In this document: one piece after another, positions 36,860 to 59,993 of the stretch | Numbering within the stretch: position 1 is the first letter of the stretch | Layout: each line of letters begins with the position of its first letter | Source: a virus | Length of the DNA stretch: 64,000 nt | Direction: 5' to 3' (one strand) | Virus record (IMG/VR): IMGVR_UViG_3300020202_000002 | Coordinates: 1-64,000 of that record | Program-made: the position numbers and the translations under genes | Notes under the pieces: generated by a model | Seen by the model: only the letters and a program-made list of their open reading frames with translations | Databases searched by the model: none | What the model was told of the DNA's origin: nothing

Positions 36860-37495
36860 ATGGGAGTCGTCGTACCAGTCGTAGGACCGATGAGGAGCGG
36901 CACAAGCCTCGTCAGCAGCATCGTCCATGTTCTCGGCGTCTGCATGGGCGAGCGGTGGATAACCGAAGACCCAGAGTGGTGCAGGGACGGCTTCTGGTGC
37001 GATGACGAGTTCCACGAGCTATTTGTCGAGGTGCTCGGAGGATATCCCGGCCACTTCACCGTCGACACGTTCAACCGCGATGCGCTACCCAAGTTGAAGG
37101 ACCAGGTAGCCAAGAGGGAGGGGACCTACGTTCGCTGGGGCGTCAAGAGTCACCTGCTGTCCTTCGTCTGGCCTCACTGGTGGCCGCTGTGCTCGCACGA
37201 GATTCGAGCTATCTTCCCGTGCAGACCGCCCGCCGAGTCGATTGCGTCACTGGCGGCTAGAACCGGACACACCGAAGAATGGGCTGCGGACTACCTGCAA
37301 CCCTTCTTCGCGTCAGTGGCAGAAGCCAAGAGATTCCACGGGGAAAAGCTGTTCGTCGACTACGACACGCTCTTGGCTGACCCGGTAGCCGAGGTGGGCC
37401 GCATAGCGGAGTTCCTTGGCGTCAGCGTGACGCAGTACGCCATCGCCAGAGTCAAGCCGGAGTTGAGGCGATTCAATCAGCGCCTTCACATTTGA
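36860..37495 (+). CDS. sulfotransferase family protein
   Basis: PAPS-binding loop VGPMRSGTS; WGVK; R.P.ESIAS; VDYDTLLADP. Confidence 0.8.
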   Translation: MGVVVPVVGPMRSGTSLVSSIVHVLGVCMGERWITEDPEWCRDGFWCDDEFHELFVEVLGGYPGHFTVDTFNRDALPKLKDQVAKREGTYVRWGVKSHLLSFVWPHWWPLCSHEIRAIFPCRPPAESIASLAARTGHTEEWAADYLQPFFASVAEAKRFHGEKLFVDYDTLLADPVAEVGRIAEFLGVSVTQYAIARVKPELRRFNQRLHI

Positions 37496-37664
37496 CGACG
37501 ATCGTGCTGCCGCCGGACGCGCGAGACACCTCGAAACCGTCGACGATCACGACAACGTCCTTCTTGCGCGATCCGGACGCCTCCGCGATCACCATAAACG
37601 TGAAGCACGCGAAAGCGAGCAAAAGAGAGATCCACCAGGATTCGGCTTTCAGATAGGTGAGCAT
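37473..37664 (-). CDS. small membrane protein (moron)
   Basis: GGAGGA RBS on the minus strand; TM helix WWISLLLAFACFTFMVIA. Confidence 0.5.
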   Translation of the reverse strand: MLTYLKAESWWISLLLAFACFTFMVIAEASGSRKKDVVVIVDGFEVSRASGGSTIVVKCEGAD

Positions 37665-37812
37665 AGATCCTCCAAGTCGGGCAAGTGTGTTCGGCATGGT
37701 GACTTCCTAAGTGAATCATTCGAACGTTTCAGACCGGCATTTGCCCGATGTGGGTTTTCTTGCGGCGCACCGAATCGCGGTCTGTGGCAGAGGCCGAGCG
37801 GCGAAAGATTGA

Positions 37813-37841
37813 TTGCATGCCTAGCAGCCGCTAGCCATAAT
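37813..37841 (+). promoter_or_regulatory. sigma-70-type promoter
   Basis: TTGCAT-N17-CATAAT; ATG 37848 lies 6 nt downstream with no RBS. Confidence 0.5.
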
Positions 37842-37847
37842 TGGCTC

Positions 37848-39034: not shown

Positions 39035-39037
39035 GCC

Positions 39038-39298
39038 ATGGCGTGGAAGTGGGGCGACAAACTGAAGTCGGCATTCGAGCTGGTGGGCATCACCGAGGAT
39101 CGCGCCGCGAAGTTTCTGGGCGAGCATTGCAACTGCCCGAAGCGCCGAGAGGCTCTGAACGCCTTCAGCGACTGGGCCGAACGACTGGCAAGCCGCCTGA
39201 TGGGCGCGAAAGAGGAGCACGAAAAGGAAATCGTCAAGGATCAGGGCTTGCAGGAGCTGGAAGTCCTGATGGACCGACCACCGAGGAGCAACAAATGA
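39038..39298 (+). CDS. small conserved phage protein
   Basis: GDKL...CNCPKRREALN motif. Confidence 0.6.
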   Translation: MAWKWGDKLKSAFELVGITEDRAAKFLGEHCNCPKRREALNAFSDWAERLASRLMGAKEEHEKEIVKDQGLQELEVLMDRPPRSNK

Positions 39299-39981
39299 AG
39301 TGGGCCTACGGTGTGACCACTGTGCCCGAGCGTCGCAAGGATCTTCTGCCGCGAACGCTGGCCAGCCTTGAGAAAGCAGGATTTCCGGCCCCGCGGTTGT
39401 TTGTTGACGGGGCCACGTCTGGCGTCGAGTGGTCCGGACTGTTCGGTCTGGAAATCACGTTTCGCCACCCGAGGATGCACGCCTTCGGCAACTGGTTGCT
39501 CAGCCTACAGGAGCTTCTCATCCGCGAGCCGGCAGCAGATCGCTACGCCATGTTCCAGGACGATCTTGAGGCGTGCCGGGGGCTGAGGAGTTATCTGGAA
39601 AAGACCAGCATGGAAGGGCCGGTGTACCTGAACTGCTTCACGACGGCAGCAAGCGCCAACGGCGACGGCTGGCATCCATCCAAGCGTCCGGGAACCGGAG
39701 CTGTCGCCCTGGTGTTCAATCGTGAGACGGTAACGACTCTCCTTCAGCAGTCCTGGCTGCACGGTCAGCCGCTCGATGGCATCCGCCGCAAGGCTTACAT
39801 CGACGACTGCGTGAGGCGCTGCCTGCAACCGCTGTTCTACGTCGAAATGGTGCACGGCCCGAGCCTGGTGCAGCACACCGGTGCTTTGTGCTCCACAGTC
39901 GGCAGCAGTATGCAGCTGGTAGCGGATGGATGGAGCGAGAACGTGTTGGACGGCGCTGGCGCTTTGGTAGGACAAACATAG
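39295..39981 (+). CDS. GT-A fold glycosyltransferase (paralog of 38264)
   Basis: MKWAYGVTTVP.RR.DLLPRTLASL; YAMFQDD; PSLVQHTG. Confidence 0.75.
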   Translation: MKWAYGVTTVPERRKDLLPRTLASLEKAGFPAPRLFVDGATSGVEWSGLFGLEITFRHPRMHAFGNWLLSLQELLIREPAADRYAMFQDDLEACRGLRSYLEKTSMEGPVYLNCFTTAASANGDGWHPSKRPGTGAVALVFNRETVTTLLQQSWLHGQPLDGIRRKAYIDDCVRRCLQPLFYVEMVHGPSLVQHTGALCSTVGSSMQLVADGWSENVLDGAGALVGQT

Positions 39982-40006: not shown

Positions 40007-40804
40007 ATGAGGCTTGGGGTTGTTGGTGGGGGCGTAGTCGGCCACGCTATGGCGCGGGCGTTCATGGAGCATTCCGAAGGTGGCACTCGTGTCTACGACG
40101 TGGTGCCGGAGCGATGCACGCACTCACTTGAAGATGTTCTTTCCTGCGACCTGATCTTCGTCTGTCTGCCGACACCGGCGAATGAAGACGGGTCGTGCAA
40201 GACTTCGTTTGTCGAACAATTCTTTCGGGACGTTGGCACGTCCGCTTTCGCCGATCGCAACTTTGTGCTGCGGTCCACGGTGCCGGTCGGCACAACCAAG
40301 AAGCTGGGCGAACGCTACGGCGTCAAGAATCTGGTGCACTCGCCTGAGTTTCTGACGGCGCGATGTTCGGTGGCCGATGCGCAGGTACCGGCGCGGAACA
40401 TCGTGGGCATACCGCACCCCAGCGCGGCAACCAGCCTTCTCGCAGAGTTGTACAAGCGGCGCTTCCCAGGCATTCCCGTCCACATCACGACGAGCGACGA
40501 GAGCGAGGCCGTGAAGCTCATGCAAAACAGCTTTTTCCTTACGAAAATCGCCATTTTCAACGAGTTCTACCAGTTTGCCCAGGCGCGAGGGATGAACTGG
40601 TCTCGCGTACTGGCTGGGCTACTCAGCGACGGGCGGATTGCGCACGCCCACACTCAGGTTCCTGGTGTGGACGGCTTATTTGGCGCGGGCGGAGCCTGTT
40701 TGCCAAAGGACATCGCGAACCTCGTGCACTGCATGGGTGACGAAGCTGTCGTCATCCGCGCGGCGATGGAGAGGAATAAGCGGGACAGGGAGAGGGTGGC
40801 ATGA
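40007..40804 (+). CDS. UDP-glucose/GDP-mannose dehydrogenase family (short form)
   Basis: GGGVVG, FVCLPTP, STVPVGTT, PEFL, catalytic GGACLPKD; C-terminal domain absent. Confidence 0.88.
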   Translation: MRLGVVGGGVVGHAMARAFMEHSEGGTRVYDVVPERCTHSLEDVLSCDLIFVCLPTPANEDGSCKTSFVEQFFRDVGTSAFADRNFVLRSTVPVGTTKKLGERYGVKNLVHSPEFLTARCSVADAQVPARNIVGIPHPSAATSLLAELYKRRFPGIPVHITTSDESEAVKLMQNSFFLTKIAIFNEFYQFAQARGMNWSRVLAGLLSDGRIAHAHTQVPGVDGLFGAGGACLPKDIANLVHCMGDEAVVIRAAMERNKRDRERVA

Positions 40805-40980
40805 CGCTTGAAAATCGCATCGACGACATCCCATACGGTGGTGGCTGGTGGAAGTCGGCAGGTCGTGACATGTTCCTTGAACTTGCTCGCGAGATGATGC
40901 GCAAAGGTCTGACAGAGGAGGATGCCATTGGCATCCTCACATCGGCTTACTGCACAGTGGCAGCGGAGTTTGGCAATTGA
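40801..40980 (+). CDS. hypothetical protein
   Basis: 59-aa ORF coupled on both sides. Confidence 0.5.
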   Translation: MTLENRIDDIPYGGGWWKSAGRDMFLELAREMMRKGLTEEDAIGILTSAYCTVAAEFGN

Positions 40981-42248
40981 ACATCATCACCCACACAACC
41001 TGCCGCTGCTGCGGCTCCGAGAACATGACGCCCCTGTTTTCGCTGGGCGAGCATTTCGTGTCGGATTTCGTGGACCGCGAGCACATCTACGACGGTACCG
41101 AGTGCCCGATCGATCTGGAACAATGCCGCGATTGCACGCTGGTGCAGATGAAGCACACCGCGCCCCAGGAGTTGCTCTACAGCGGCCACTACTGGTACGT
41201 GTCGGGCCGGACGCAAACCATGCGAGATGCCCTGCGCGACGTTGCCGCAGCAGCCGAGCGCGTGGCCAACCTCAAGGCTGGTGACGTGGTGCTCGACATC
41301 GGCTCCAACGACGGAACGTTTCTGCGATCCTACGAAGTTTCCGGACTGATCAAGGTAGGCGTTGAACCGGCCAAGAACCTCGCTGAAGAAGGGGCGAAGG
41401 GCGTCGGCTACTTCTTCCAGGAGTTCTGGCCTCTGTCCGAGAGGACGCTGGAGAACATGCGTCTGGGCGGCGTCGATCTCTCCGGGGAGCGGAAGGCCAA
41501 GGTCATCACGGCGCTGGGGATGCTTTACGATGCCGAGGACCCGAATGCCTTCGTCGCTGGTGTTGCCAGGTGCCTAGCGAAAGACGGGGTCTTCATCGCG
41601 CAACTGATGTGCGCCAAGAACATGCTGGCCGTGGCTGACGTTGGCAACCTGTGCCACGAGCACCTGCTTTTCTTTTCATTGAGATCCCTCGAATCTCTCT
41701 TCGCCAAGCACGGGCTGGAAATCTTCGACATCGAGACGAATGCGGTCAACGGCGAAAGCTACCGTCTGTACGTTCGGCACAAGGATTCATGGATCGGCGC
41801 ATCGCCAGAAGCGTCCAACAGGTGGATAGACGCTTTCAACGCCGAGGCCAGCATTGGACTGAACGGTCCGGACGCGATGATGTTCTTCTACCGGCGCGCG
41901 TGCGAGAACCGACAAGCCGTCGTGGACTGCGTGCGCTCGGCTGTAGCGGACGGAAAGACCGTGGCAGTGCTTGGCGCGAGCACCAAAGGTAACACTTTGT
42001 TGCAGTGGTGGAGCTTCGATTCGTCCGTCATCTCGTTCGCAGCGGAGCGCTCGCCGGAGAAGCACGGCAAGTTCACGATCGGCACAGGCATCCCCATCGT
42101 CAGCGAAGAGGAGTTTCGGCGACGGCAGCCGGATTTCGCTTTGATACTCCCATACGCTTTTGAGGCAGAGATTCGCGAGCGCGAGCGCGAATGGCACGAG
42201 CGGGGAGGCAGGTTTATCTTACCCCTACCAGAAGTGAGGATCACATGA
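40977..42248 (+). CDS. NDP-hexose C-methyltransferase
   Basis: Zn site CRCC...CRDCTLVQ; LDIGSNDG; CHEH; GASTKGNTLL. Confidence 0.88.
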   Translation: MNIITHTTCRCCGSENMTPLFSLGEHFVSDFVDREHIYDGTECPIDLEQCRDCTLVQMKHTAPQELLYSGHYWYVSGRTQTMRDALRDVAAAAERVANLKAGDVVLDIGSNDGTFLRSYEVSGLIKVGVEPAKNLAEEGAKGVGYFFQEFWPLSERTLENMRLGGVDLSGERKAKVITALGMLYDAEDPNAFVAGVARCLAKDGVFIAQLMCAKNMLAVADVGNLCHEHLLFFSLRSLESLFAKHGLEIFDIETNAVNGESYRLYVRHKDSWIGASPEASNRWIDAFNAEASIGLNGPDAMMFFYRRACENRQAVVDCVRSAVADGKTVAVLGASTKGNTLLQWWSFDSSVISFAAERSPEKHGKFTIGTGIPIVSEEEFRRRQPDFALILPYAFEAEIREREREWHERGGRFILPLPEVRIT

Positions 42249-42403
42249 TGAGAACCGTGTGCGCGGCGTTTGCCGGTGTCCTACTAGCTAGCCTTTTCGG
42301 GTGGCCTAGTGTGCTCGTTCTCATCGTGTTCGTGCTGTGGGATATGCACAACGAGCTCTCCGCCACTGCGAAACCGACGCGACGGGAGCCGTTGCGTGAC
42401 TGA
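42245..42403 (+). CDS. small membrane protein
   Basis: hydrophobic; coupled. Confidence 0.4.
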
Positions 42404-42584
42404 CGCCAGCAACTACGCCTTGGCGCTTAGCAAGGCTCAGCGAGCCGTCAAACGCTTGTCCAACTTCAAGCCACCAGTTCGCAGGGGCCGGTCGTTGCGA
42501 ATGATGCAGCGAATCGGGCGTAACGATCCGTGCCCCTGCGGCAGTGGGGTGAAGTTCAAGCGGTGCCACGGAGCAAGGGAATGA
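42396..42584 (+). CDS. SEC-C motif protein
   Basis: [20 protein letters not shown]. Confidence 0.7.
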
Positions 42585-43573
42585 CGCAACGTGCGCTAAT
42601 AACCGGATGCGGTGGCCAGGACGGATCGTTCCTGTGTGACCTACTGTTGGAACGCGGCTATGAGGTCCACGGCATCGTCCGCCGTTCGTCCCTGGACAAC
42701 CTCGCCCGCATCGCCCACTGCCGCGACAAGATCATCCTGCACCAAGGCGACGTGACGGACGCCAGCTGCCTCGAAGGCATCATTGCTGACGTATCCCCGC
42801 ATGAGGTCTACCACGAAGCGGACCAGGACTCCGTAGGCTGGTCGCACGTCACCCCCGCGTACCAGGTCGAGGTCACCGTCAAGGCCACGGTGCATCTGCT
42901 CGAAGCCTGCCGCGTTCAGTGCCGCGAGGCGAGAATCTTCCTGCCATGCTCAGCCATGATGTTCGGCGACCCGGCATTTACCGACCTCACGGGCATGCAA
43001 GACGAGCAATCGCCGTTGAACCCGCAGAGCCCGTACGGCGTGGCGAAATGCCACGTCTTTTACATGGGGCGCATGTATCGCCAGCGGCACGACATGTTCG
43101 TGGCCAACGGGATCCTGTTCAACCACGACAGCGAGCGTCGTTCCGAGCACTACCTTCTGCACAAGATCTGCCGCGGCGTGAAACGCATCGCCGCCGGCCA
43201 GCAGCACACACTCGCTCTGGGCAACCTCGACGGCCGCGTGGACGTGGGCTATGCCCGCGATTACATGGAAGCTGCCATCGCCATGTTGCAGTTCAAGAAG
43301 CCCGACGACTTCGTGATCGCCACGGCGCAGGCGCATTCGGTGGAGGACATGGTGCACTTCGCCTTCCAGCGGGCGGGCATGAAGATCGGGCCGCGCGATC
43401 TGAGCAACTACATCACCGTGGATCCGCAGTTTTACTACCAGGCAAGGGGCATTCTGCGAGGCAATCCGGAGAAGGCGTGGAACTGCCTCAACTGGCGGGC
43501 GACAACGCACATCAAGGACCTCATCGGCATCATCATGGACGGCGAGAGGGCGGAAGGGGGCAAGGCAGCATGA
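42581..43573 (+). CDS. gmd: GDP-mannose 4,6-dehydratase-like protein
   Basis: [34 protein letters not shown]...[14 protein letters not shown]. Confidence 0.82.
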
Positions 43574-43848
43574 GTGTTACCCACATCGCGGGGCGACCCG
43601 TTGCTCTCCGCGGGCATCTGAACCGTGTCATCCAGCGGTGCGCCCTGTGCGGAGCGATGATGGACGACCGCAGCATCGGACTGATGATCGTGAAGGCGGG
43701 GCATGCGGGCCTGACGCCGTACCCCGAGGGCCACCTGATCCGGTTCAAGACGGAAGAGGGGCCGACCGTTCGCAGCGACCTGGGGCCGATCAATCAGCGG
43801 AACGAGTTGCCGGCCGACTTCTGCCTGAGGGATGTGGACAAGCAATGA
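43570..43848 (+). CDS. hypothetical protein
   Basis: VTHIAG...QRCALCG; coupled. Confidence 0.55.
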   Translation: MSVTHIAGRPVALRGHLNRVIQRCALCGAMMDDRSIGLMIVKAGHAGLTPYPEGHLIRFKTEEGPTVRSDLGPINQRNELPADFCLRDVDKQ

Positions 43849-44636
43849 GAGCACTATCGTGTCCGAAGATTATAGTTGATGGTCGCCAAGCAGAAGACTT
43901 GAGAGGCCGCGTATTCAACAGATTGACAGTGGAATCGCTGGGAGAAAGAGACCGACAGGGCAGGCTGCAATGGAAGTCTCGTTGTACGTGCGGCAATGTT
44001 GTCGTTTGTCGCCGTGATCATCTTACGTCAGGAAACACGCAAAGCTGCGGGTGTTTGCAGTACGAAATGTTTGTTAGGCGTATCACCACTCATGGTATGT
44101 CTGGAGGCAGGCGCGGCAGGATTCCCGAATACATAGTCTGGAACAACATGCACCAGCGTTGCTTCAATCCGGACAACCCGCGATGGCCACACTACGGTGG
44201 CCGCGGCATCTCTGTGTGCGATCGTTGGCAATCATTCTCGGCGTTCTTGGCTGACATGGGGCGAAGACCTGGCAAGGAGTATCAAATAGAACGCAAGGAT
44301 AATAACTCTGGATATTCGCCAGACAACTGCATTTGGGCAACATCGCACAAGCAAACCAGAAACACGCGGCGAAATCTGTTTCTCTCATTTGCTGGCAGAA
44401 CAATGTGCTTGACGGATTGGGCTAGCGAAATGTCATTGAGACCTGGATGCATACGCAAGCGACTTGCTCTAGGCTGGCCCATTGGTGACGCTTTGACATT
44501 GCCAGCCAAGCAAGCCGGTCCCCACTGGGAGCAATCGAAACTCAAGATTGGTGCAGCACATCGTGGTCGACAGTTAACCATTCGCCACCGAGCAAAACTT
44601 CGAGCCTCATGGTTAAGACGTAAAGGAGGCCAGTAA
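43845..44636 (+). CDS. free-standing HNH-type homing endonuclease
   Basis: DLRG.VFNRLTV, C.CGN, SCGC, YGGRGISVCDRW, IERKDNN.GYSPDNC.WAT. Confidence 0.85.
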   Translation: MRALSCPKIIVDGRQAEDLRGRVFNRLTVESLGERDRQGRLQWKSRCTCGNVVVCRRDHLTSGNTQSCGCLQYEMFVRRITTHGMSGGRRGRIPEYIVWNNMHQRCFNPDNPRWPHYGGRGISVCDRWQSFSAFLADMGRRPGKEYQIERKDNNSGYSPDNCIWATSHKQTRNTRRNLFLSFAGRTMCLTDWASEMSLRPGCIRKRLALGWPIGDALTLPAKQAGPHWEQSKLKIGAAHRGRQLTIRHRAKLRASWLRRKGGQ

Positions 44637-51540: not shown

Positions 51541-51882
51541 ATGACCTCCCCCACCACCTTAGGTAAAGGAGCAGCCATGAATAAAAAACCGACAACTAAG
51601 CCTCTGAATGTCACCATAAAAGGCAAGACGTTCAAGATGTCGGCTGTGAAGAATGTTTACAACACAACCAGGGACTGGTGGGAATGCGCACCGTTCTCGG
51701 TGACGCGGTGGTTAGACACGCGAAAGTCCGGCTTACCGCCATGGGAAATAACCATGTCCGGACCCTGGTACGGCGACAGCGATCCGCAAGGCATGGGAGC
51801 TACATTGGAAGAGGCTGTCTCAAACTTTGAAGATGCCATCGACCGTTGGGTCAGCTATTTGCAGACATTAGGCCAGAAATGA
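51541..51882 (+). CDS. hypothetical protein
   Basis: AT-richer ORF; alternative start at 51577 after AAGGAG. Confidence 0.5.
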   Translation: MTSPTTLGKGAAMNKKPTTKPLNVTIKGKTFKMSAVKNVYNTTRDWWECAPFSVTRWLDTRKSGLPPWEITMSGPWYGDSDPQGMGATLEEAVSNFEDAIDRWVSYLQTLGQK

Positions 51883-52460
51883 ACAGCCCAGCCACCGTCG
51901 AATTCTGGCTAGACCGCATCCGCGCGGCCGTCGCTGAAGACCGCCACGACCCCGTACGTGCCGCGCTGGGCTACGCTGGTGCTGCCGAGACGCTGCGCAA
52001 CGTCAAGAACAGCATTCGCATCCTGGACCGCTACGTTCGCCATGGGGACCGCGTTCTCGAAATCGGCTGCGGCTGCGGTGACCTGTATCCGCTCATGCCA
52101 GAAGGCGTGGACTACTGGGGCATCGATCTTGTGCCGGACTTCATCGAGGAAGCGAGGAAAGCCTACGTCGAGCCACGATCGCTGCACATGCGCGACTCGT
52201 GCCGGTTCGACGTAATCGACATCGTGAAGGACCACTGGGACTTTCGCGACAACCTGAACAGCCACAATTGGGACGTGGTTGTCGGCAAGATGGTGGAGGC
52301 AACCATCGGCGGGTCAGTCGGCAAAGATACGTGGCACGAGGTCATGACGACGCTAGTCTGCGTCGGCAGAAAGGTGATCTTGTGGTCCAGCCATCACACG
52401 GTTCCCAGCGTGTTCGTCGCGGCCGGCGGCAAGCCGATTCAGACGCAGGAGGCGAAATGA
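51879..52460 (+). CDS. class I SAM-dependent methyltransferase (paralog of 49332)
   Basis: TVEFWLDRIRAA N-terminus shared with 49332; VLEIGCGCG; YWGID. Confidence 0.8.
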   Translation: MNSPATVEFWLDRIRAAVAEDRHDPVRAALGYAGAAETLRNVKNSIRILDRYVRHGDRVLEIGCGCGDLYPLMPEGVDYWGIDLVPDFIEEARKAYVEPRSLHMRDSCRFDVIDIVKDHWDFRDNLNSHNWDVVVGKMVEATIGGSVGKDTWHEVMTTLVCVGRKVILWSSHHTVPSVFVAAGGKPIQTQEAK

Positions 52461-53341
52461 CGACGGAGCATTATCCCGGCATGGCCATCTCGCCCGGCAG
52501 CGTTCGCACCGTCTACCGCCCGCAGGTTCGCTCGGGCAAGTTCCACGCCGGCAAGGATTGCACCATCGGCGAGAACGTGGTGGTCGACGTGGCGGAAGAG
52601 TGCGTCATCGGGGACCGCTGCGTCATTCCGGACAACGCCTACCTGTGCGGGCGGCGAATCGAAATAGGCAACGATTTTTTCGGCTACACCCACTGGAACC
52701 GTCGTCTCGAAGTCGGTCTGGGGCGGCGCGACGACGAGTTTGCCATTCTCAAGGTCGGCTCACGATGTACGTTCCATGACAACCGAATCGACCTGGCCCG
52801 CGAAGTGACCATCGGCGATGACGTTGGGCTGTCGCCCGAAGTGACTCTGTATACGCATTTTTATTGGCTCTCGGAATTGGAAGGGTTTCCGGTTGGCTAT
52901 GCCCCAATCGAGGTTAAGTCCGGGGCCATCATCGGCTATAGGTCAACTTTGCTGCCAGGCTGCGTTGTGGGCATGAAGTGCGTCGTGGGTGCAGGCAGTA
53001 TTGTCAAAGGGCACCTTGCCGACGAAACAGTCAACGCTGGAAACCCGGCACAATACATTCGGCACATCGACACTCCGGACCTTGGCTGGCAGAAAGCCAC
53101 GATGATGAGGATTCTCGACGAATATAAAGCCTCGTGCGAATATAGGAAATGCGGCCACCATGTGCAGATGGACGAATGGCCGATCGTCAAGTCCGGTGCG
53201 GCGTCGTTCGATGTTAAGGCATGCAAGATCGTGAGCGGTCACGAAAACGACCTTACGGATGATCTTCGCGACTGGCTGTTTCGGCATGGAATTAGGATAT
53301 ACACACAACGACCTTTTCGGAAACTATCAAAGGTGTCATGA
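52457..53341 (+). CDS. left-handed beta-helix acyltransferase
   Basis: hexapeptide repeats; VTIGDDV; LPGCVVG..CVVGAGSIV; AGNPA. Confidence 0.85.
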   Translation: MTTEHYPGMAISPGSVRTVYRPQVRSGKFHAGKDCTIGENVVVDVAEECVIGDRCVIPDNAYLCGRRIEIGNDFFGYTHWNRRLEVGLGRRDDEFAILKVGSRCTFHDNRIDLAREVTIGDDVGLSPEVTLYTHFYWLSELEGFPVGYAPIEVKSGAIIGYRSTLLPGCVVGMKCVVGAGSIVKGHLADETVNAGNPAQYIRHIDTPDLGWQKATMMRILDEYKASCEYRKCGHHVQMDEWPIVKSGAASFDVKACKIVSGHENDLTDDLRDWLFRHGIRIYTQRPFRKLSKVS

Positions 53342-54090
53342 TGGTAGCTTTTAAGGAAGCAAATGGATTCCCCGGATATCGTGTCGGTGACGATGGCAGC
53401 GTGTGGACGTGCTGGAAAACTAATGGCCAAAAACCATCTGTGATGTCGAATGCATGGAAGCGAATGCGTCCTGGTCATCTCAAGAACGGATACCTGCAAG
53501 TGGCGCTTTCCAGAGGCGGCAAGAGGTTTCAAAAGAAGGTCCACCATCTTGTTTTGGAGGCGTTCGTCGGCGTTCGCGCCCATGGGCAGGAAACGCGGCA
53601 CAAGAATGGCATCCCAAGCGACAATCGATTGGACAATTTGTGCTGGGGCACGCATTCCGAAAACTACCAGGATCGTGTTCGACATGGCACCGACAATAGA
53701 GGCGACAGAAACGGTCCATCTATACTGACGGACGATGATGTGAAGGACATCGTGGCGCTTCTTAGAACCACAGACCAATCTCAAGAACAAATAGCCAAGA
53801 CGTTTGGTGTGACGCAAGGAACCATCGCTCATATCAACAATGGCAGAAGTTGGGGCCATCTCACCGGAGCGTCTCGCGGGCCACTCGTGAGTCGACGGAG
53901 GCCTCTTGGCACTGGAGTCGTGGCAAAAATGCTGGGCGTCGGTTCCACCGCAGTGCAACGGTGGATGGACACGGGAATACTTCAGTCATGGCGTGTCAAC
54001 TCTCATCGGAGAACGTCGCTAGATCACGTTCGGGCGTTTGCCAAACAGCGAGGCATCGTGATCCAGGAGGGCGCGTTGTGCCGCGTGTGA
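53338..54090 (+). CDS. NUMOD4-type HNH endonuclease with C-terminal HTH domains
   Basis: FPGYRVGDDG.V; VHHLVLEAF; RHKNG..SDNRLDNL.W. Confidence 0.85.
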   Translation: MMVAFKEANGFPGYRVGDDGSVWTCWKTNGQKPSVMSNAWKRMRPGHLKNGYLQVALSRGGKRFQKKVHHLVLEAFVGVRAHGQETRHKNGIPSDNRLDNLCWGTHSENYQDRVRHGTDNRGDRNGPSILTDDDVKDIVALLRTTDQSQEQIAKTFGVTQGTIAHINNGRSWGHLTGASRGPLVSRRRPLGTGVVAKMLGVGSTAVQRWMDTGILQSWRVNSHRRTSLDHVRAFAKQRGIVIQEGALCRV

Positions 54091-54950
54091 TGCTAGCTAC
54101 GCTCTGTCTAAACGAGATGGAGTTTTTGCGTGTTTTGGTCGAACAACATCGCGACTGGCCGGGCCTTAGCCGCTGGATCTTCGTAGAAGCCTGCGACGGC
54201 GCGTACGGGAGCGCCAACCCCGACATGGTGACCAACGCTGGCCTATCGGTCGACGGTACGTCGGAGTTCCTCGCCGACCTCGCTGCGAAAGACTCGCGCG
54301 TGACCTACATCCCGTACGGTTACAGCCACAGCTTCGCGTTTCCCGGCGAACCGGAGAAGGGTAAGTGCGGGGCGCGGCAGGCGTATCTTGACGTGGCGGA
54401 AACCATCCGGCCGGATTACGTCATCAGCATCGACGCCGACGAATTTTACACTCGCGACCACCAGCACCGCATCATCGAGGTGATGGATGCCCACCGGGAC
54501 TACGATTCGTTCATCTTCAACCGCCGCGAGATTTGGCGACCGCCGCTATGCTCCGAAATGGCCCTGTTCAGCTACGAGGTCGTGGGTGGCTTCTGGTCGA
54601 TCCCATGCTGTCACTGGTGGCGCTGGCAGCCTGGCATGCACCATCGCACCTGCCACAACACCCCGCACACGGCAGACGGCAAGCCGATGAACGACCGCAT
54701 CTTCGACGCGCGCGAGCATCCGGGCATGCCCGAGATGATCCACATGGGATTCGCGGCGTCTGCGCGAACCAGGCTGGCGAAGAATAACTACTACGCCCAG
54801 CGCGGAGAGTCTGCGGATCCCAAACGACGCTGGTACGTGGAGAGCCGCGCGGCGTGGGCACGCTGGCACGCGGGGAAGACGCTGCCGCGGGATGCGAAGG
54901 TTTTGCCGTTTGTGGGCGATATCCCGGAATGTTTTAGAGGAATCGCCTGA
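54078..54950 (+). CDS. GT-A (GT2-like) glycosyltransferase
   Basis: LNE..FL; SVDGTSE; ISIDADEFY DxD motif. Confidence 0.8.
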   Translation: MPRVMLATLCLNEMEFLRVLVEQHRDWPGLSRWIFVEACDGAYGSANPDMVTNAGLSVDGTSEFLADLAAKDSRVTYIPYGYSHSFAFPGEPEKGKCGARQAYLDVAETIRPDYVISIDADEFYTRDHQHRIIEVMDAHRDYDSFIFNRREIWRPPLCSEMALFSYEVVGGFWSIPCCHWWRWQPGMHHRTCHNTPHTADGKPMNDRIFDAREHPGMPEMIHMGFAASARTRLAKNNYYAQRGESADPKRRWYVESRAAWARWHAGKTLPRDAKVLPFVGDIPECFRGIA

Positions 54951-54983: not shown

Positions 54984-55364
54984 ATGGCCAAGTTGCTTCT
55001 GATGTTTGGGTTCTGCGCCACGATGGTCGTAATGTGGAGGCATAGAGAATACAAGGACGAGTTTTACACAACGGAGTTGTCCCACAAGGTTGTGTCTCTT
55101 ATGAAACAGCCTGGGTGGAAGCTCGACGGAGACATTTGCCGCAACGCCTCCATTGGAATGTCGGTCGTGGCATCGCCAACTCGATTCTGGAATTTCGAAC
55201 AAGGAACGCTTTACGCCGTAACCGTAACTGTCGACGGCCAGGCGGAGATCAACCTTGTCGACGGCAGAGCTGCCGACAGCAGAGCCATTCTCAAAGAGTA
55301 CAAACGCTTGGTTCGCGAACTGCAGCAGGACGCTATCAACAAACTCCACGGCGAGCCAGAATGA
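54984..55364 (+). CDS. hypothetical protein with N-terminal TM anchor
   Basis: GGGAG RBS; hydrophobic N-terminus. Confidence 0.5.
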   Translation: MAKLLLMFGFCATMVVMWRHREYKDEFYTTELSHKVVSLMKQPGWKLDGDICRNASIGMSVVASPTRFWNFEQGTLYAVTVTVDGQAEINLVDGRAADSRAILKEYKRLVRELQQDAINKLHGEPE

Positions 55365-56275
55365 GAGTTTTCTTCCCCCGCTACCTGATCGAATCCCACC
55401 GCGAGCCGTGGCAATCGGCCAAGCTGGTCTGCGAACTGGCCAAGCTCGACGTGCATTGCCTGCTCGAAATGGACCGCTCGATCGACGTGGTGTTCTGCGG
55501 GGGCATCTCCGTCGTCGAAGATGCAGCCAACGGGTTCAAGAAGGATCCCTACGGACGACTGGTTCCCGGATATCGCGATTTCCCCAAGGTGCCGGTAGTG
55601 CACTACTGCTGGGACCTGTACCCGTGGGTGGTGACAAACAAGGACTACCCCGACCATCGGCGCTGGGTCCACTACATGCGGGAACTGCGGCGGGCCAAAG
55701 AGGTCTGGGTGCCGACCACGCCGGTAGTGAAGCGCGTCGAGCAGTTCCTGAAGCGTGACGCGCACGTGGTCAAGTGCCCGGTGCCGTTCTGGGATCCTGA
55801 CGAGCCAGCCCGAGACGGCGGTTACGTTGTCGACGTGATGAGGCGATACCCGAAAGAACCGAATGTGGGCCTGGTGACCAAGGTGTGCGCCGAACTGGGC
55901 ATACCGCACGCCGAGACGGGGGCCTCGCTTTCCTGGGACGACTACCGCCGCACGATCGCCAACGCGAGGCTGCTGGTGTCGTCGTACTACGAGGCGTCAA
56001 CGGGGAGCCTGGCGCTGCTCGAAGGCTACCGGCTGGGGAAACCGGTGCTGCTGTCGGATTCGCCATGGCATGGGGGGCGGGACTTGTTCGGGGACCGGGC
56101 GACGTATTTCCGGTGGGATGACGAGCAGGAGTTCGCCGCGACGCTCAACATCGTGTACCAGGCTGGCGTCACAGCGCCCGAGGACTCTGCCTACTGGGCT
56201 GAAGCAACCTACGGCGAGACGGCTTTCGCGCACCGGATGGCGGAGAGGCTGCGGGAGGTGGTAGGTGGACGGTGA
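55361..56275 (+). CDS. GT-B (GT4-like) glycosyltransferase
   Basis: HYCWDLYP; S.YE...LALLEGY.LGKPVLLSD. Confidence 0.8.
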   Translation: MRVFFPRYLIESHREPWQSAKLVCELAKLDVHCLLEMDRSIDVVFCGGISVVEDAANGFKKDPYGRLVPGYRDFPKVPVVHYCWDLYPWVVTNKDYPDHRRWVHYMRELRRAKEVWVPTTPVVKRVEQFLKRDAHVVKCPVPFWDPDEPARDGGYVVDVMRRYPKEPNVGLVTKVCAELGIPHAETGASLSWDDYRRTIANARLLVSSYYEASTGSLALLEGYRLGKPVLLSDSPWHGGRDLFGDRATYFRWDDEQEFAATLNIVYQAGVTAPEDSAYWAEATYGETAFAHRMAERLREVVGGR

Positions 56276-56756
56276 GGAAGTTCCTCTGATTGGCTGCAAA
56301 AGGCATGGAGGATTCTGGCTGAAGTTCGCGCCAGCGGTCAAGATCAATGGCAACTGGCAATGCTCGCTGTGCCCGGAAGTCCTCTTTACCAAGGTCGAAC
56401 CTTATGAGGGCTGCGACTTCATCAATGATGTGCGCGGCTACATCGTCTGGCGGCGCGGCACTGGCGACAACACCGAGCTGCTGCACATCAAGACGACGGA
56501 ACACGGCAAAGGTTACGGCCGGCAACTGGTGTACGGGATGCTCGACAAGCTGCGCGAGCGTCCCCCTTACCACTCTGTCTACGGCTTCACGCGCGTCAGC
56601 AACACGGAGGCCCAGGCGTTCTACGGGGCACTGGGGTTCAGTTTGCAGGAGATTCAAGGCGTCTACGCCGACGGCCGGGCCGTGCTGTTCTGGGCGGCGT
56701 ACAAGGACCTGCTGGCGAAGCGAGAGGAATGGGAGAATGAGCAGCGACGATCTTGA
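56265..56756 (+). CDS. GNAT acetyltransferase with Zn-ribbon-like N-terminus
   Basis: GKGYGRQL; SN..AQAFY..LGF. Confidence 0.85.
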   Translation: MDGEEVPLIGCKRHGGFWLKFAPAVKINGNWQCSLCPEVLFTKVEPYEGCDFINDVRGYIVWRRGTGDNTELLHIKTTEHGKGYGRQLVYGMLDKLRERPPYHSVYGFTRVSNTEAQAFYGALGFSLQEIQGVYADGRAVLFWAAYKDLLAKREEWENEQRRS

Positions 56757-56910
56757 GCCAGGTGACATCGTTGCCCTTCGCTCTGGCGGTCCGGACATGA
56801 CCGTCATGGAGATTTACCAGGATGGCACGGTTCGCTGTTTCTGGATGAACGATGAAGGCGAAACGGACCACGATGTGTTTGCCGTGGCGTGCTTGGAGAA
56901 AAGCGAATGA
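56737..56910 (+). CDS. YodC/DUF2158 family protein
   Basis: GDIVALRSGGPDMTV...VRCFW. Confidence 0.8.
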   Translation: MSSDDLEPGDIVALRSGGPDMTVMEIYQDGTVRCFWMNDEGETDHDVFAVACLEKSE

Positions 56911-57824
56911 CACCTCTCCGCATCGTCTACATTGGGCGCCATGGGCAGGTCGGCTCAAGTAACGACGACGAGGGCGCTGTCGCCTACGCCCTTCGGCAGC
57001 TGGGGCACGAGGTCGTCTGCGTTCCAGAGCAGCCCGCCCGCAAGGTGTTCGACGGGCCACCAGCAGACCTATGCCTGTTCAACAAATGGTCCGACTGGGA
57101 GGCGATACGGCAGATTCAGTGCCCCAAGGTCTTCTGGTACTGGGACCTCGTGGACTACCCGAAAGACCCCTCGCTCGCCCGGCGCTGCGCCCAGCGTCGT
57201 TCCTGGATGCAACAGGCCACAGCGATCGCAGACCTTGGCTTCTGCACTGATGGCGACTGGGTTGCCAAGGACACGACCGGCAAGCTGCACTGGCTCATGC
57301 AGGGCTTCGATGAGCGGCTGCAACCTGCGGAGCGGACCACGGAGGACATTGATATCCTGCTGCCGTGCAGCGTCATCAAGTGCGGCGAGGGCAGGGCACG
57401 CTTCGTGGCGGCGATGAAGGAACGCTGGGGGCCGAGGGTGCACCATGTCGAGGGCGGGGTGCACGGCAAAAGACTGGCCGAACTGGTGGCGCGGAGCAAG
57501 GTGGTGGTTTGTCCGGATGAGCCACATGGGGCGCGATACTGGAGCAACAGACTGTATTTGATGTCTGGCCTTGGTGGCGTGATTGTGCATCCGTTATGTG
57601 TCGGGTTTTGGCCTATGTCGCCCGATGCACTCTTCGCCGTGCAAGGTGTCTCCTACTACATTCCTGGCAGCAATATTCGCGACGACATCGCGCACCTGCT
57701 TGAGTATCACGACGCTCGCATTGAAGGTGGGCAAATCGCCAGAAAAGACGTGCTGGCTCACCACCTTTACCGCCATCGCTGCGAGCAACTGATTCAGACA
57801 GTCCGGGACAGGCTCAAGATTTGA
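56907..57824 (+). CDS. CgeB-like GT-B glycosyltransferase
   Basis: ALRQLGHEV; YWSNRLY..SG.GG; IA...VLAHHLYRHR. Confidence 0.8.
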   Translation: MTPLRIVYIGRHGQVGSSNDDEGAVAYALRQLGHEVVCVPEQPARKVFDGPPADLCLFNKWSDWEAIRQIQCPKVFWYWDLVDYPKDPSLARRCAQRRSWMQQATAIADLGFCTDGDWVAKDTTGKLHWLMQGFDERLQPAERTTEDIDILLPCSVIKCGEGRARFVAAMKERWGPRVHHVEGGVHGKRLAELVARSKVVVCPDEPHGARYWSNRLYLMSGLGGVIVHPLCVGFWPMSPDALFAVQGVSYYIPGSNIRDDIAHLLEYHDARIEGGQIARKDVLAHHLYRHRCEQLIQTVRDRLKI

Positions 57825-57835
57825 GGAGGATACGG

Positions 57836-58966
57836 ATGAGGACGATTCAGGGAGCGGCGTGCTGCATCGTGGGTGGTGCTGGATTTTTAGGCAGCCATGT
57901 TGTCAACCATTTGGTGAACGACAGGTCCTGCAAAGTTCTCGTCATCGACAACCTGGTGGCCGGTCGGCGTGAATTCGTGCACCCCAAGGCAACGTTCAAG
58001 CACGCCGACATCACCGCGAGCGAGGAGTACCTTCGTCAGTTGTTCGAGCAGCACAAGATCAAGTATGTCCTGAACTACGCCGCTTGGCCGTACGTCGTTG
58101 ATTCATTCTCGCGGCCGCTGCACGTTTTCAACGTGAATGCGACCGGAGCGCTCAAGATCATCAACGCAGCGCAGGCGGCCGGGTGCAAGGGCATCCTCCA
58201 GATCAGCAGTGCGGAGATCTACGGTGATGCTGGACAAGTTCGCCACGCCACTATGCGTGGCAACCCGTTGGACCCTGACTCGTGCGAAATCGTTGGATAT
58301 AAGTACGAAGGCATCAAGATAGGCGAGACATCTCGCGTTGCGCCCCACAGCAGCTACGGCGCAGCCAAAGCCGCCATTGATGCCATGGTCCAAGTTCGCT
58401 GGCGAGAAGCGAAGACGCCCTGCATTGCGCTCCGCCAGTTTAACGCAGTGGGGGAGCGCGAGACGCACGAGTACGTGGTGCCAGAGATAATCCGGCAACT
58501 CGATAAGCAGCGTCGACTCATAAGGTACACAAGTGCGCGCGCTGGCAAAAACAGATTCGCAACGCCAGAGAACGCCACCGTCAACCTTGGCAATGACAGT
58601 CTTCGTGACTTCATTTACGCCGGCGACCAGGCCCGCATGGCGGTCGAACTGCTCGAAAAGGGCCAGTTCGGCGAGGTCTACAACCTGGGAAGCGAAACCG
58701 GCATCAAGATCTACGACCTCGCGAAACTTATCGGCAAACTGATGGGCTTCGAGAACGTGACGGTTGAGAAGGATCCCTCCCGCGTGCGACCCTGGGAAAT
58801 CTGGCATCTCCAGAGCGACAACAGCAAGATTCACAGCGTCATCGACGCGCGGCCGCAGGTGGACCTTGAGGAAGCGCTGCGCCGGACGATCGCGTGGTAT
58901 GAGAGCAACGGCCGACGATGGCCATGGGAAGCAAGGAGCGCGGATGGAATCCTATCAGCGTCTTGA
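57836..58966 (+). CDS. NAD-dependent nucleotide-sugar epimerase/dehydratase
   Basis: GGAGFLGS, ISSAEIYG, SSYGAAK, RDFIY, GEVYNLGS. Confidence 0.88.
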   Translation: MRTIQGAACCIVGGAGFLGSHVVNHLVNDRSCKVLVIDNLVAGRREFVHPKATFKHADITASEEYLRQLFEQHKIKYVLNYAAWPYVVDSFSRPLHVFNVNATGALKIINAAQAAGCKGILQISSAEIYGDAGQVRHATMRGNPLDPDSCEIVGYKYEGIKIGETSRVAPHSSYGAAKAAIDAMVQVRWREAKTPCIALRQFNAVGERETHEYVVPEIIRQLDKQRRLIRYTSARAGKNRFATPENATVNLGNDSLRDFIYAGDQARMAVELLEKGQFGEVYNLGSETGIKIYDLAKLIGKLMGFENVTVEKDPSRVRPWEIWHLQSDNSKIHSVIDARPQVDLEEALRRTIAWYESNGRRWPWEARSADGILSAS

Positions 58967-59993
58967 GCGCGCTTTCGCCGAGTGGAACAACCTCGATCCA
59001 GTCGGCATGGTCGCCTGCAGCTCGGGTTCGAGCGCGCTCCACCTCGCCCTCGAATCACTCCGCCTGCCCAACGGCTGCGAAGTCCTGACGAGCGACTTCA
59101 ATATGATCGCCGTGCCGCGCGCCTGCACTCTGGCCGGTCTGACTCCGGTGCTCGTTGATTGCACTGACGATTTGCTGATAAGCACGGAATTGATGGTACA
59201 AGCCCTCACCGAGGGAGGGTCCAACTGGGATCGCGACATCCGCAGCACTGGATTCGGGCTCCCTCGCAAGCAGGCCATTGGGGCAATCGTGCTTGTCCAT
59301 ATTTATGGTCGACGGTACGAATGGCAGCGACTCACGTCCGAGTTGCCGTTTTACGGGCCACGCATCATCGAAGACCTCGCCGAAGCCCACGGCGTGCGCC
59401 CGCACCCGGAAACCGACGCGGCCTGTTGGTCGTTCTTCAAAAACAAGATCATCGCCGGACATGAAGGCGGGGCCGTCTGGTTCAAGAACCACGAGCACGC
59501 CGCGCTCGCCCGCCAGCTCCGCTGCCTGGGTTTCACGGACAAGCACGATTTCATGCATGTTCCAAGAGGGCACAACTACCGCATGTCGAACGCCCACGCC
59601 GAACTGATCCTGGATTCGCTGGCCAAGGTCGACGAAAACGTGGCCCGACGGCGCGAAGCCGAAAGCTGGTACGACGCGGAGTGCCCGGACCAGTGGAAGA
59701 TGCCCGCCCGTACGTCGCCTTGGGTGTACGACCTCAGAATCCCCGGCATGACAGCCGAGCAGCAGGACCACGCCGTTCGGCTCTTGCAAGAGCACGGCAT
59801 CCAGGCGAGGCACGCCTTTCGGCCCATGTCTTGGCAGGAAGAGTACCGCAACGGCCGATTGGTGCGCGGCCCAGAGCACGTTGCCGCACGCATGGGGCGC
59901 GAGGTGATCTACCTGCCGCTGATGGGGGTTATCGAGGAAGACGCGAAATTGGCTTTCCAGATATTGCGTGGGTTGCTCGGTTCACTAGAATAA
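58944..59993 (+). CDS. DegT/DnrJ/EryC1/StrS sugar aminotransferase (perosamine synthase-like)
   Basis: SSGSSALHLAL, VHIYG, IEDLAEAHG, SFFKNKII..EGG, GHNYRMSN. Confidence 0.9.
   Translation: MESYQRLERAFAEWNNLDPVGMVACSSGSSALHLALESLRLPNGCEVLTSDFNMIAVPRACTLAGLTPVLVDCTDDLLISTELMVQALTEGGSNWDRDIRSTGFGLPRKQAIGAIVLVHIYGRRYEWQRLTSELPFYGPRIIEDLAEAHGVRPHPETDAACWSFFKNKIIAGHEGGAVWFKNHEHAALARQLRCLGFTDKHDFMHVPRGHNYRMSNAHAELILDSLAKVDENVARRREAESWYDAECPDQWKMPARTSPWVYDLRIPGMTAEQQDHAVRLLQEHGIQARHAFRPMSWQEEYRNGRLVRGPEHVAARMGREVIYLPLMGVIEEDAKLAFQILRGLLGSLE

Follow-up and report, generated by a model that had tools for sequence, protein, structure and literature searches.

A tail-linked glycan synthesis module in an uncultured siphovirus lineage and its candidate role in virion glycosylation

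The virus record IMGVR_UViG_3300020202_000002 (88,746 bp, 127-bp direct terminal repeats, CheckV completeness 100%) is the genome of a complete, temperate siphovirus, which is called temperate because it carries a tyrosine integrase and a LexA-like repressor. In the window analyzed here, which is the first 64 kb (64,000 nucleotides) of this record, a single plus-strand block of about 27 genes stands directly behind the tail genes (36860–59993, 23 kb), and this bacterial virus devotes 26% of its genome to the sugar chemistry encoded there. A comparison of related viruses indicates that the glycan block is a lineage trait and not a one-off, and that it is headed by an unnamed, highly conserved, and mainly viral family of GT-A-fold glycosyltransferases (GTs), which has no Pfam model and is newly defined here. 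An initial annotation of the window had proposed that the phage builds a glycan in the cytoplasm and attaches it to its own virion. We also favor a cytoplasmic role in the lytic cycle, most likely glycosylation of the virion and in particular of its tail, with a confidence that we would call evenly balanced. The synteny with the tail operon, the relatives that mostly lack an integrase, and the absence of genes for an initiating phosphoglycosyl transferase (PGT) or a Wzx flippase lend this proposal indirect support, whereas the temperate nature of this phage and the position of the block in a conversion slot speak against it.

The genes and their conservation, the synteny, and the missing export functions were observed directly; what the glycan is attached to, when it is made, and how each step proceeds chemically we infer from them as follows. 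The block would close the tail operon and serve the phage as a glycan factory of its own in the cytoplasm. Because the phage encodes no nucleotidyltransferase according to Pfam and NCBIfam, the factory would rely on host nucleotide sugars, drawing GDP-mannose and UDP- or dTDP-hexoses from the cell. The donors made from these may include 6-deoxy-4-keto, C-methyl-branched, and N-acylated 4-amino-4,6-dideoxy sugars, and possibly uronic acids. The conserved pair of GDP-mannose 4,6-dehydratase (GMD) and C-methyltransferase would yield a C-methyl-branched 6-deoxyhexose, and the conserved set of a 4,6-dehydratase, a DegT aminotransferase, and either a GNAT or a left-handed beta-helix (LbH) acyltransferase would yield an N-acylated 4-amino-4,6-dideoxyhexose. 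A FabG-like short-chain dehydrogenase (SDR) possibly supplies a hydroxyacyl group, a short dehydrogenase possibly makes a uronic acid, and a PIG-L enzyme would deacetylate an N-acetylhexosamine. Soluble GT-A, GT-B, and GT-D transferases would assemble the oligosaccharide, and FkbM, S-adenosylmethionine (SAM) methyltransferases, and a sulfotransferase would finish it by O-methylation and, in this phage, sulfation, with acylation as a further modification. The glycan would most likely be attached to the virion itself, chiefly to the distal tail and tail-fiber proteins encoded directly upstream, with (Thr-Gly)n linkers as candidate O-glycosylation sites. The conserved GT-A is the best candidate for a step that every relative shares, which may be the attachment to the acceptor; the type of glycan would depend on the variable genes that follow it.

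A wider picture, which we offer tentatively, is that of siphoviruses from soil and freshwater that form a widespread, wholly uncultured lineage, probably infect Planctomycetota/Verrucomicrobiota, and would have a dedicated protein O-glycosylation system in their tail module. Here, the (Thr-Gly)n linkers of both the tail fibers and the distal tail would be primed at their threonines by GT-A, and an O-antigen-like hypervariable cassette would give each phage its own "virion serotype," which in this phage would be a sulfated, methylated, and acylated glycan made by 23 kb of genes. We have not seen described a lineage-wide module fixed behind the tail genes, the unnamed viral GT-A at its head, the O-antigen-like turnover of its cassette, or 23 kb of such genes including a sulfotransferase in a temperate siphovirus. 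If this picture is right, the glycan would, to our knowledge, be the first sulfated one of a phage.

A Module Fixed Behind the Tail Genes

A profile scan of IMG/VR with the GT-A family yielded 112 relatives, 80 loci of which were analyzed (all with GT-A, by construction), and all proteins of the phage were compared with 83 loci by tblastn. In the relatives, GT-A lay on the same strand as homologs of the tail genes and 2–5 kb downstream of them; the upstream homologs were those of the genes starting at 31032 (56 of the 83 loci), 32446 (44), 27044 (41), and 27589 (34). The first of these is the marker gene of the lineage and encodes a distal tail protein of 468 aa (31032–32438, plus strand) behind the tape measure gene, with homologs at 32–47% identity. 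GT-A was usually the first recognizable gene of a variable cassette, for which a frequent order was GT-A, (the 86-aa protein), C-methyltransferase, GMD, GT4, GT2, methyltransferase, (GNAT), dehydratase, and DegT. Moreover, GT-A was separated from the preceding open reading frame (ORF) by no more than 20 nt in 24 of 79 relatives.

The cassette genes differed in how often they recurred. GT4 (44636) was found in 41 of the 83 loci, DegT, usually the last gene, in 20, and the C-methyltransferase/GMD pair in 16–17, with the C-methyltransferase adjoining GMD in 17 relatives. The two GT-D genes had only one or two relatives in these loci, and tblastn detected no relative there of the sulfotransferase, PIG-L, SDR, LbH acyltransferase, DUF7336, and SEC-C genes or of the HNH gene at 53338. 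Because several genes are without relatives in the tested loci, and the GT-D genes nearly so, the comparison indicates that the 23-kb block is an enlarged form of the module, whose usual length is ~6–10 kb.

In the reverse search, a profile of tail gene 31032 found GT-A in 31 of the 33 loci that have at least 7 kb of downstream sequence, and six of the eight new contigs carried GT-A; these counts are not fully independent, since many of the contigs overlap the GT-A set and the tail profile was built from GT-A-bearing loci. A scan with the single sequence of the distal tail protein 31032 found no relatives, whereas the profile did find loci. The synteny check that the initial annotation had called for thus identified the module as a near-core, same-strand appendix of the tail operon across an uncultured lineage. 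A search for literature on this lineage (O-glycosylated tail fibers, Planctomycetes phages) found none in open-access text.

The Conserved GT-A Family

The leading gene of the module in the relatives corresponds to GT-A glycosyltransferase 1 of this phage (38264–39034, plus strand). It has no Pfam match, and its GT-A fold was recognized by the ESM Atlas and by Foldseek with an AlphaFold model built from a 23-sequence alignment (pLDDT 84.9). At E ≤ 1e-3, it has 439 database relatives with ~50% identity (mostly 45–53% among the matches listed), which are likewise without a Pfam domain, occur on contigs of up to ~100 kb, and keep the invariant motifs "QDD" and HxPSLxQH. The family comes with a clear genomic signature, and both the GT-A and the GT-D families are mainly viral in the ESM Atlas. 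The second GT-A glycosyltransferase of the block (39295–39981, plus strand; no Pfam match) is a paralog of the first, with 42% identity (E 9e-56). Across the relatives, the identity of GT-A is ~50%, compared with 30–47% for the tail proteins, and the stronger conservation of GT-A fits a constant acceptor.

Foldseek placed the model near GT25-, GT13-, and GT2-type enzymes, with TM-scores of only ~0.5. The fold neighbors included COLGALT1 (a collagen galactosyltransferase), POMGNT1, LH3, Mimivirus R655/R699, and actinophage and giant-virus glycosyltransferases, and some of them (COLGALT1, POMGNT1, and LH3) glycosylate proteins or protein-linked glycans. The GT-A fold is therefore confirmed, and the model is compatible with a protein-linked acceptor, although this does not prove the acceptor.

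A small conserved protein of 86 aa (39038–39298, plus strand) with a CNCP motif and no assigned family was found by tblastn just before or after GT-A in 23 of the 83 loci. This protein could be a partner, chaperone, or regulator of GT-A.

Candidate Acceptor Sites in the Tail Proteins

The last tail gene (35005–36858, plus strand) encodes a 617-aa putative tail fiber or receptor-binding protein, which was named from its position and has no Pfam or PHROG match. It has only three partial relatives, with the C-terminal 150 aa related in three viral contigs. It contains several (Thr-Gly)n linkers, and the small distal tail protein of 141 aa (32446–32871, plus strand), the homologs of which occur in 44 of the 83 loci as noted above, contains an SGTGTGTG tract. 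These two proteins carry the only (T/S-G)n≥3 tracts in this genome, three of them in the fiber, and shorter TG runs lie between the domains of the fiber. Such tracts were present in 50 of 80 related loci, where all 89 plus-strand tracts lay 0–8 kb upstream of GT-A in tail-fiber ORFs and none lay downstream. Five loci without GT-A (two lineage members and three contigs sharing the C-terminal domain of the fiber alone) had no tracts. Taken together, these sequence features make it plausible that the Thr-Gly linkers of the tail proteins serve as O-glycosylation sites here.

As a separate observation, the large ORFs of many unrelated viral contigs, including giant-virus bins (sampled loci L089–L168), often carry (Thr-Gly)n tracts, which range from 4 to more than 25 units.

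Weighing the Virion Against Other Acceptors

Several points weigh against glycosylation of the virion. The "methylated, acylated, sulfated amino-deoxy-sugar" glycan is a reading of enzyme families and not of pathways. Promoter and terminator scans over 34–64 kb gave results at or below the shuffled expectation, and no operon boundaries were called. A tblastn search of 50,697 GenBank phage records with GT-A 38264 alone found no match at E 1e-3, so no sequence relative of it could be detected in those phages for which glycosylated virions have been reported. Of the 80 GT-A loci, 30 have no (T/S-G)n≥3 tract. As a reverse control, IMG/VR DNA was scanned for ACNGGNx4, which encodes (TG)4, and at least 121 stretches were obtained, 80 of which were analyzed. 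The (TG)4 lay in an ORF of at least 60 aa in 58 of the 80 sampled loci, and a GT-A homolog was within 8 kb in only one, which was a contig already in the GT-A set. Since (TG)4 is frequent without GT-A, Thr-Gly linkers are common in phage proteins and are not a signature of this system; the control ruled out (TG)n as a specific marker, and it was kept as a candidate acceptor only. In addition, the chromosomal GT-A relatives described below lie outside prophages and polysaccharide loci and are flanked by genes for Ser/Thr-kinase, STAND, and FGE-sulfatase-domain proteins (three flanks of 40 loci). Soluble GTs also act on lipid-linked intermediates, so the missing membrane genes are not decisive. 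This phage is temperate, and its block ends 3.5 kb before the integrase, which is the classic slot for lysogenic conversion. Finally, a divergent ThyA-family gene is present in 18 of the 28 lineage genomes, and a DNA target is conceivable for those.

The strongest alternative is remodeling of the host envelope, which we regard as unlikely but well worth considering. The soluble enzymes would feed new sugars into the host's undecaprenyl-linked assembly of lipopolysaccharide (LPS), exopolysaccharide (EPS), or S-layer glycan; the initiating transferase, flippase, and polymerase of the host would carry out the membrane steps, and the cell surface would be altered either during lysogeny, with serotype conversion and superinfection exclusion, or at a late stage of infection. 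It stays a rival because this phage is temperate, with an integrase, a LexA-like repressor, and only 3.5 kb between block and integrase. The contents of the block also favor it: GMD, DegT, a WcaF/WbbJ-like acyltransferase, FkbM, and GT2/GT4 are typical of O-antigen and capsule loci, and the cassette is hypervariable among the relatives, as O-antigen loci are. Similarly, cyanomyoviruses with up to 13 GTs are read as host-surface modifiers in a passage of PMC12801897.

However, the membrane components of such systems were missing. A six-frame search of the whole genome, the controls of which were positive, detected no PF02397, PF00953, PF01943, or PF04138, i.e., neither of the two PGT families, no Wzx, and no GtrA. 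PF02397 and PF01943 were also found in none of 27 relatives, and Pfam scans showed no Wzy or ABC exporter, neither of which was searched as a family in six frames. A hydropathy scan of the genome revealed no polytopic membrane ORF except the tape measure protein; the block itself has three small single-helix ORFs (42191–42403, 47455–47700, and 48431–48640). The absence of an initiating PGT, Wzx, and Gtr flippase that the initial annotation had reported was thus reproduced. The distribution among the relatives points in the same direction. Among the full records of 27 relatives, a tyrosine integrase was found in two, both of which belong to the 21 records with a completeness of at least 90%; a serine recombinase was found in none of the 28 lineage genomes. 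The other 19 of these 21 near-complete relatives have neither recombinase and yet keep the module, and its maintenance by apparently non-integrating phages speaks against lysogenic conversion as the conserved role. Furthermore, the module is tied to tail genes, with an integrase within 10 kb of the locus in only one of the 83 loci, and GT-A is highly conserved even though the hosts, and hence the host glycans, should differ.

Another cytoplasmic acceptor is a less probable explanation, which we consider doubtful. The target would be a non-virion phage protein, a host protein (for takeover, or to mask a receptor or defense protein), or a small molecule, and the linkage with tail genes would reflect no more than a site where the late operon ends and insertions are frequent. 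The region behind tail fibers is indeed a known hot spot for accessory genes, the conserved 86-aa protein travels with GT-A, and a chromosomal GT-A / GT4 / GT-A trio stands beside Ser/Thr-kinase and FGE-sulfatase-domain proteins in the three flanks mentioned above. Against this, GT-A is near-universal (31 of 33 loci) and fixed as the first gene downstream of the tail genes, a regularity beyond what is expected of a hot spot, and Pfam scans found no carrier-protein or polyketide synthase/nonribosomal peptide synthetase core enzymes.

Hypermodification of DNA, in which the sugars would be put on modified phage bases as a T-even-style protection against restriction and CRISPR, is very improbable as the common function, because all 28 genomes have GT-A but only 18 have the ThyA-like gene, which lies apart from the module. 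Viral DNA glycosyltransferases have reportedly been described by Pyle et al. (2024, cited in PMC12619734). The divergent ThyA-family protein of the relatives (G001, G003, G004, G007–G009, G011, G013, G015–G017, G019–G021, G023, and G025–G027; e.g., L299–L303) shows a partial match over positions 56–216 of 266 in frames of 300–470 aa (phrog_5131, labeled thymidylate synthase in PHROGs). Its activity could be that of an ordinary synthase or of a pyrimidine hydroxymethylase; its gene adjoins dNMP-kinase-like and deoxyribonucleotidase (5'-3') genes, and the set could make hydroxymethyl-pyrimidines. The four DNA methyltransferases of this phage also represent a heavy investment in DNA modification. 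On the other hand, this genome has no match to PF00303 (ThyA family), nor do nine other GT-A-bearing lineage genomes. The ThyA-like genes of the relatives are far from the module (13 kb in G011), PHROGs name them thymidylate synthase, and the module stands behind the tail fibers, not in the replication or nucleotide block. We know of no sulfation or amino-sugar N-acylation on DNA. A search for the TET/JBP family gave no match, and its control gave none either.

Comparison With Known Glycosylation Systems

Virion glycosylation by the phage itself has its nearest bacterial precedent in mycobacteriophages, the known sets of which comprise only a few genes. This siphovirus differs from them in having ~27 genes, its own nucleotide-sugar pathways, a sulfotransferase, and a module fixed behind the tail fibers, and its GT-A has no detectable sequence homology to theirs; its host is probably a bacterium of the Planctomycetota–Verrucomicrobiota–Chlamydiota (PVC) group, not an actinobacterium. 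In the papers that cite the original work, mycobacteriophages are described as glycosylating capsid and tail-tube subunits with their own GTs (Freeman 2023, cited in PMC12619734 and PMC12363180), and Che8, Corndog, and Myrna are given as examples (Freeman et al., 2023, cited in PMC12619734, PMC12363180, and PMC13313380). The likeness, as far as these citing texts describe it, lies in phage-encoded soluble GTs and a methyltransferase that are proposed or shown to act on structural proteins in the cytoplasm without export machinery. The present phage likewise encodes soluble GTs without lipid-carrier or export genes. Its GT-A fold resembles the Ardmore Gp87-type actinophage GT (TM ~0.5). The putative acceptors differ, being linkers of the tail and fiber here and, in the same texts, the C-termini of capsid and tail-tube proteins there.

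Giant viruses offer a further comparison. Mimivirus (fibril glycans) and chlorovirus PBCV-1 (capsid glycans) encode their own 4,6-dehydratase, aminotransferase, N-acetyltransferase, methyltransferases, and soluble GTs; these enzymes act in the cytoplasm on virion surface proteins, and the clusters vary between lineages. The present block similarly unites a nucleotide-sugar pathway, several soluble GTs, and methyltransferases in one cluster (GMD, 4,6-dehydratase, DegT, GNAT/LbH, C- and O-methyltransferases, and GT-A, GT-B, and GT-D). Unlike this phage, however, giant viruses are eukaryotic viruses with much larger genomes, whereas the cluster here occupies 26% of the genome of a bacterial siphovirus, and the likeness to R655/R699 is one of fold only. 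If the wider picture drawn above holds, the system would be the nearest counterpart to the giant-virus machineries that we know of among bacterial viruses.

Serotype conversion by Shigella and Salmonella phages (GtrABC, O-acetylase) involves one to three genes, and GtrA, GtrB, and Gtr(type) are membrane proteins. As in the present phage, the genes for glycan modification belong to a temperate phage and lie toward that end of the late region which faces the integrase, but this genome has no GtrA (PF04138, six frames) and no polytopic membrane ORF apart from the tape measure protein, and the module persists in integrase-less relatives. Wzx/Wzy- and ABC-dependent loci differ in that this genome has no initiating PGT or Wzx. 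The cyanomyoviruses S-SCSM2R and P-SSM2 carry "cell wall synthesis and modification" sets with up to 13 GTs and nucleoside-diphosphate (NDP)-sugar epimerases (PMC12801897), the target of which is putative, as it is here. They resemble the present phage in combining many GTs with NDP-sugar epimerases in a tailed phage. However, they are described there as T4-like lytic myoviruses whose genes are partly dispersed, read as acting on host LPS, and accompanied by export-related pgaA and kds (PMC12801897), whereas here a single operon-like block without export genes stands behind the tail fiber.

If the glycan is on the tail fibers, virion glycan coats would not be a curiosity of actinophages; a large environmental lineage of phages would have them as a core trait that evolves quickly. 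This would have a bearing on host recognition, sticking to EPS and soil matrix, protease resistance, and the modeling of receptor-binding proteins. If the target is instead the host surface, the block would be a large conversion cassette that works without a membrane component of its own, and in that case we know of no larger one in a siphovirus.

Likely Host and Chromosomal Relatives

A GT-A search of bacterial contigs, with one genome per species, gave two groups of matches. Matches at 38–49% identity were phage-like contigs with the same synteny that had been binned into assorted metagenome-assembled genomes (MAGs). Matches at 26–36% identity came almost only from Planctomycetota/Verrucomicrobiota, and 36 of 40 record titles were from these phyla; three of these matches were very weak and were not recovered by tblastn. 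In Mb-sized contigs of these phyla, a recurrent GT-A / GT4 / GT-A trio was found, with 27–36% identity to the phage GT-A (L241:7729–10627, in which GT-A and GT4 are fused; L243:7873–10621; L220:9482–10678; and similar loci among L221–L245). The phage itself has a planctomycete cytochrome-c domain in the protein encoded at 21284 and a DUF1580 match. A PVC bacterium is the likely host, as judged from these matches.

Gene Content of the Block

The ORF list confirmed the statement of the initial annotation that the block begins 1 nt past the stop of the tail fiber on the same strand, with the fiber ending at 36858 and the next ORF starting at 36860. All genes described in this section are on the plus strand. 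Families were assigned with Pfam, NCBIfam, and PHROGs on the ORFs of the window, and folds with the ESM Atlas, AlphaFold, and Foldseek. The nucleotide-sugar enzymes named in the initial annotation (dehydrogenase, Gmd-like, epimerase/dehydratase, DegT, C-methyltransferase, and SDR) and its tailoring enzymes (sulfotransferase, FkbM and two SAM methyltransferases, LbH, GNAT, and PIG-L) all received matching family assignments. Its inventory is extended by two HNH genes, small ORFs (SEC-C, DUF7336, and DUF2158), the short form of the dehydrogenase, and the integrase at 63563.

The nucleotide-sugar enzymes begin with the short UDP-glucose/GDP-mannose dehydrogenase-like protein (40007–40804, 265 aa; Pfam, NCBIfam), which has the motifs GxGxxG and GGACLPKD. 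The Rossmann motif and the catalytic Cys are present, and the C-terminal domain that canonically binds the nucleotide sugar is missing. Because the short form (252–340 aa) recurs in 12 relatives (L010, L012, L014, L028, L034, L040, L044, L052, L053, L069, L071, and L072), it is a form of the lineage and not a broken gene, and a pseudogene was ruled out. The nucleotide-sugar C-methyltransferase (40977–42248; Methyltransf_13/23/14, E 2.6e-36) is followed by GMD (42530–43573; PF16363, E 2.5e-84; TIGR01472, 273 bits, below the cut-off of 415). The FabG-like SDR is encoded at 50453–51112 (adh_short_C2, E 9.6e-30), and the end of the block holds the NDP-sugar 4,6-dehydratase/epimerase (57821–58966; Epimerase, E 2e-40; dTDP-glucose 4,6-dehydratase-like and LegB-like in NCBIfam) and, as the last gene, the DegT/PseC/LegC-type sugar aminotransferase (58764–59993; PF01041, E 3e-43).

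Of the eight GTs of three folds counted in the initial annotation, six are supported and two are only probable. Besides the two GT-A genes described above, the supported ones are a GT-B enzyme of GT4 type (44636–45679; Glyco_trans_1_4, Glycos_transf_1), a GT-D-fold enzyme (46310–47062; GT-D and GT-D-like clusters in the ESM Atlas, mostly Uroviricota), a GT2-like GT-A enzyme (54078–54950; PF00535, 22.3 bits against a cut-off of 23.3; homologs at 42–51% identity in 18 loci), and a GT-B-type enzyme (56889–57824; Glyco_trans_1_2, PF13524, E 2.2e-8; homologs in 19 loci). The probable ones are a second GT-D-like protein (47709–48434; PF22882, E 0.042), in which WGDGE matches RYNDGE of 46310, and a possible GT-B enzyme (55361–56275; Glyco_trans_1_4, E 0.019; homologs in three loci). 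Weak matches alone were obtained for 47709, 54078, and 55361, yet 54078 is conserved in the relatives. BLASTP showed no similarity between 55361 and 56889, and the single-sequence AlphaFold model of 55361 reached a pLDDT of only 34.8. A PDB sequence search with 54078, 55361, 47709, and the sulfotransferase 36860 gave a best match of only E 0.0075.

The sulfotransferase (36860–37495, 211 aa) matches Pfam Sulfotransfer_3 and Sulfotransfer_1, with 27.4 bits against a cut-off of 27, and its N-terminal VVGPMRSGTS is presumably a 5'-phosphosulfate-binding (5'-PSB)-like motif for 3'-phosphoadenosine 5'-phosphosulfate (PAPS). The other tailoring enzymes are FkbM (48637–49332; PF05050, E 1.2e-13), a SAM methyltransferase (49281–49802; Methyltransf_25/11; homologs in 19 loci), the PIG-L family de-N-acetylase (49806–50456; PF02585, E 1.8e-9), and a further SAM methyltransferase (51846–52460; weak class I methyltransferase matches below the cut-offs; homologs in 11 loci). 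They also include the LbH O/N-acyltransferase (52457–53341; Hexapep, WcaF/WbbJ-like in NCBIfam), whose ORF opens at 52199 with a probable start at 52457, and the GNAT acetyltransferase (56265–56756; PF00583; homologs in seven loci).

The GC content at third codon positions (GC3) of the cluster genes is 0.73–0.82, compared with 0.70–0.86 for the structural genes, and this similarity marks the cluster genes as long-term residents. The HNH endonuclease gene between GMD and GT4 (43638–44636; phrog_374, E 1.9e-61) has a GC3 of 0.50, compared with ~0.75 for its neighbors, and splits GMD from GT4, which are adjacent in the relatives; this suggests a recent invader. The second HNH endonuclease, with a helix-turn-helix domain (53338–54090; HNH_3, HTH_17; phrog_59, E 1.1e-42), sits between the LbH acyltransferase and GT2, and a third HNH gene was noted between the terminase and the portal (7798–8202).

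Genome Context and Minor Observations

An assembly chimera was ruled out by the terminal repeats, the phage genes on both sides of the block, and the synteny common to the relatives, and the junction of tail fiber and cluster is present in two DNA sequencing runs, both of soil metagenomes and possibly the source of the record. No near-identical DNA was found among the 50,697 GenBank phage records, and the best identity of the large terminase among them was only 22–26% (phages of Bacillus, Parageobacillus, and Enterococcus). A tRNA scan found none, and no endolysin or holin was recognized anywhere in the genome. Closer relatives are the 20-kb contig L149 (IMGVR_UViG_3300025687_000448), whose portal shows 74% identity, and a contig of 55 kb that was binned into a MAG (protein P0002) and whose GT-A shows 71% identity.

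Upstream of the block, the plus strand encodes a ParB-methyltransferase, the large terminase (5619), the portal (8407), a Mu-F-like head protein, and a capsid-family protein (16203), followed by the tape measure protein (28357–31035, plus strand), from which the distal tail genes run up to 36858. Downstream and outside the cluster, the tyrosine integrase (63563–64750, of which 63563–64000 is in the window; plus strand; Phage_integrase and Arm-DNA-bind_3) starts 3.5 kb past the end of the block. Beyond the window lie the LexA-like repressor, a PD-(D/E)XK nuclease, DnaB, several DNA methyltransferases, and a DUF5131 gene.

The structural region also carries unusual cargo genes (10764–11405, 18389–18862, 18865–20649, 21284–22222, and 23024–23947), which encode a sigma-70-like factor, a response-regulator receiver domain, two proteins with signal-peptide-like N-termini, and a protein with an HEAGHxxxxxH zinc-protease motif; one of the two signal-peptide-like proteins carries the planctomycete cytochrome-c domain. 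In the head region, a 634-aa protein (12732–14636) has a Lys/Pro/Ala-rich segment in two copies, each ending in KKNAFEQL, and the next ORF (14652–15554) contains a run of acidic ENEE-type repeats. Both proteins are probably scaffold- or protease-associated, and their repeats account for the spike in AT skew (0.385) at 14–16 kb.

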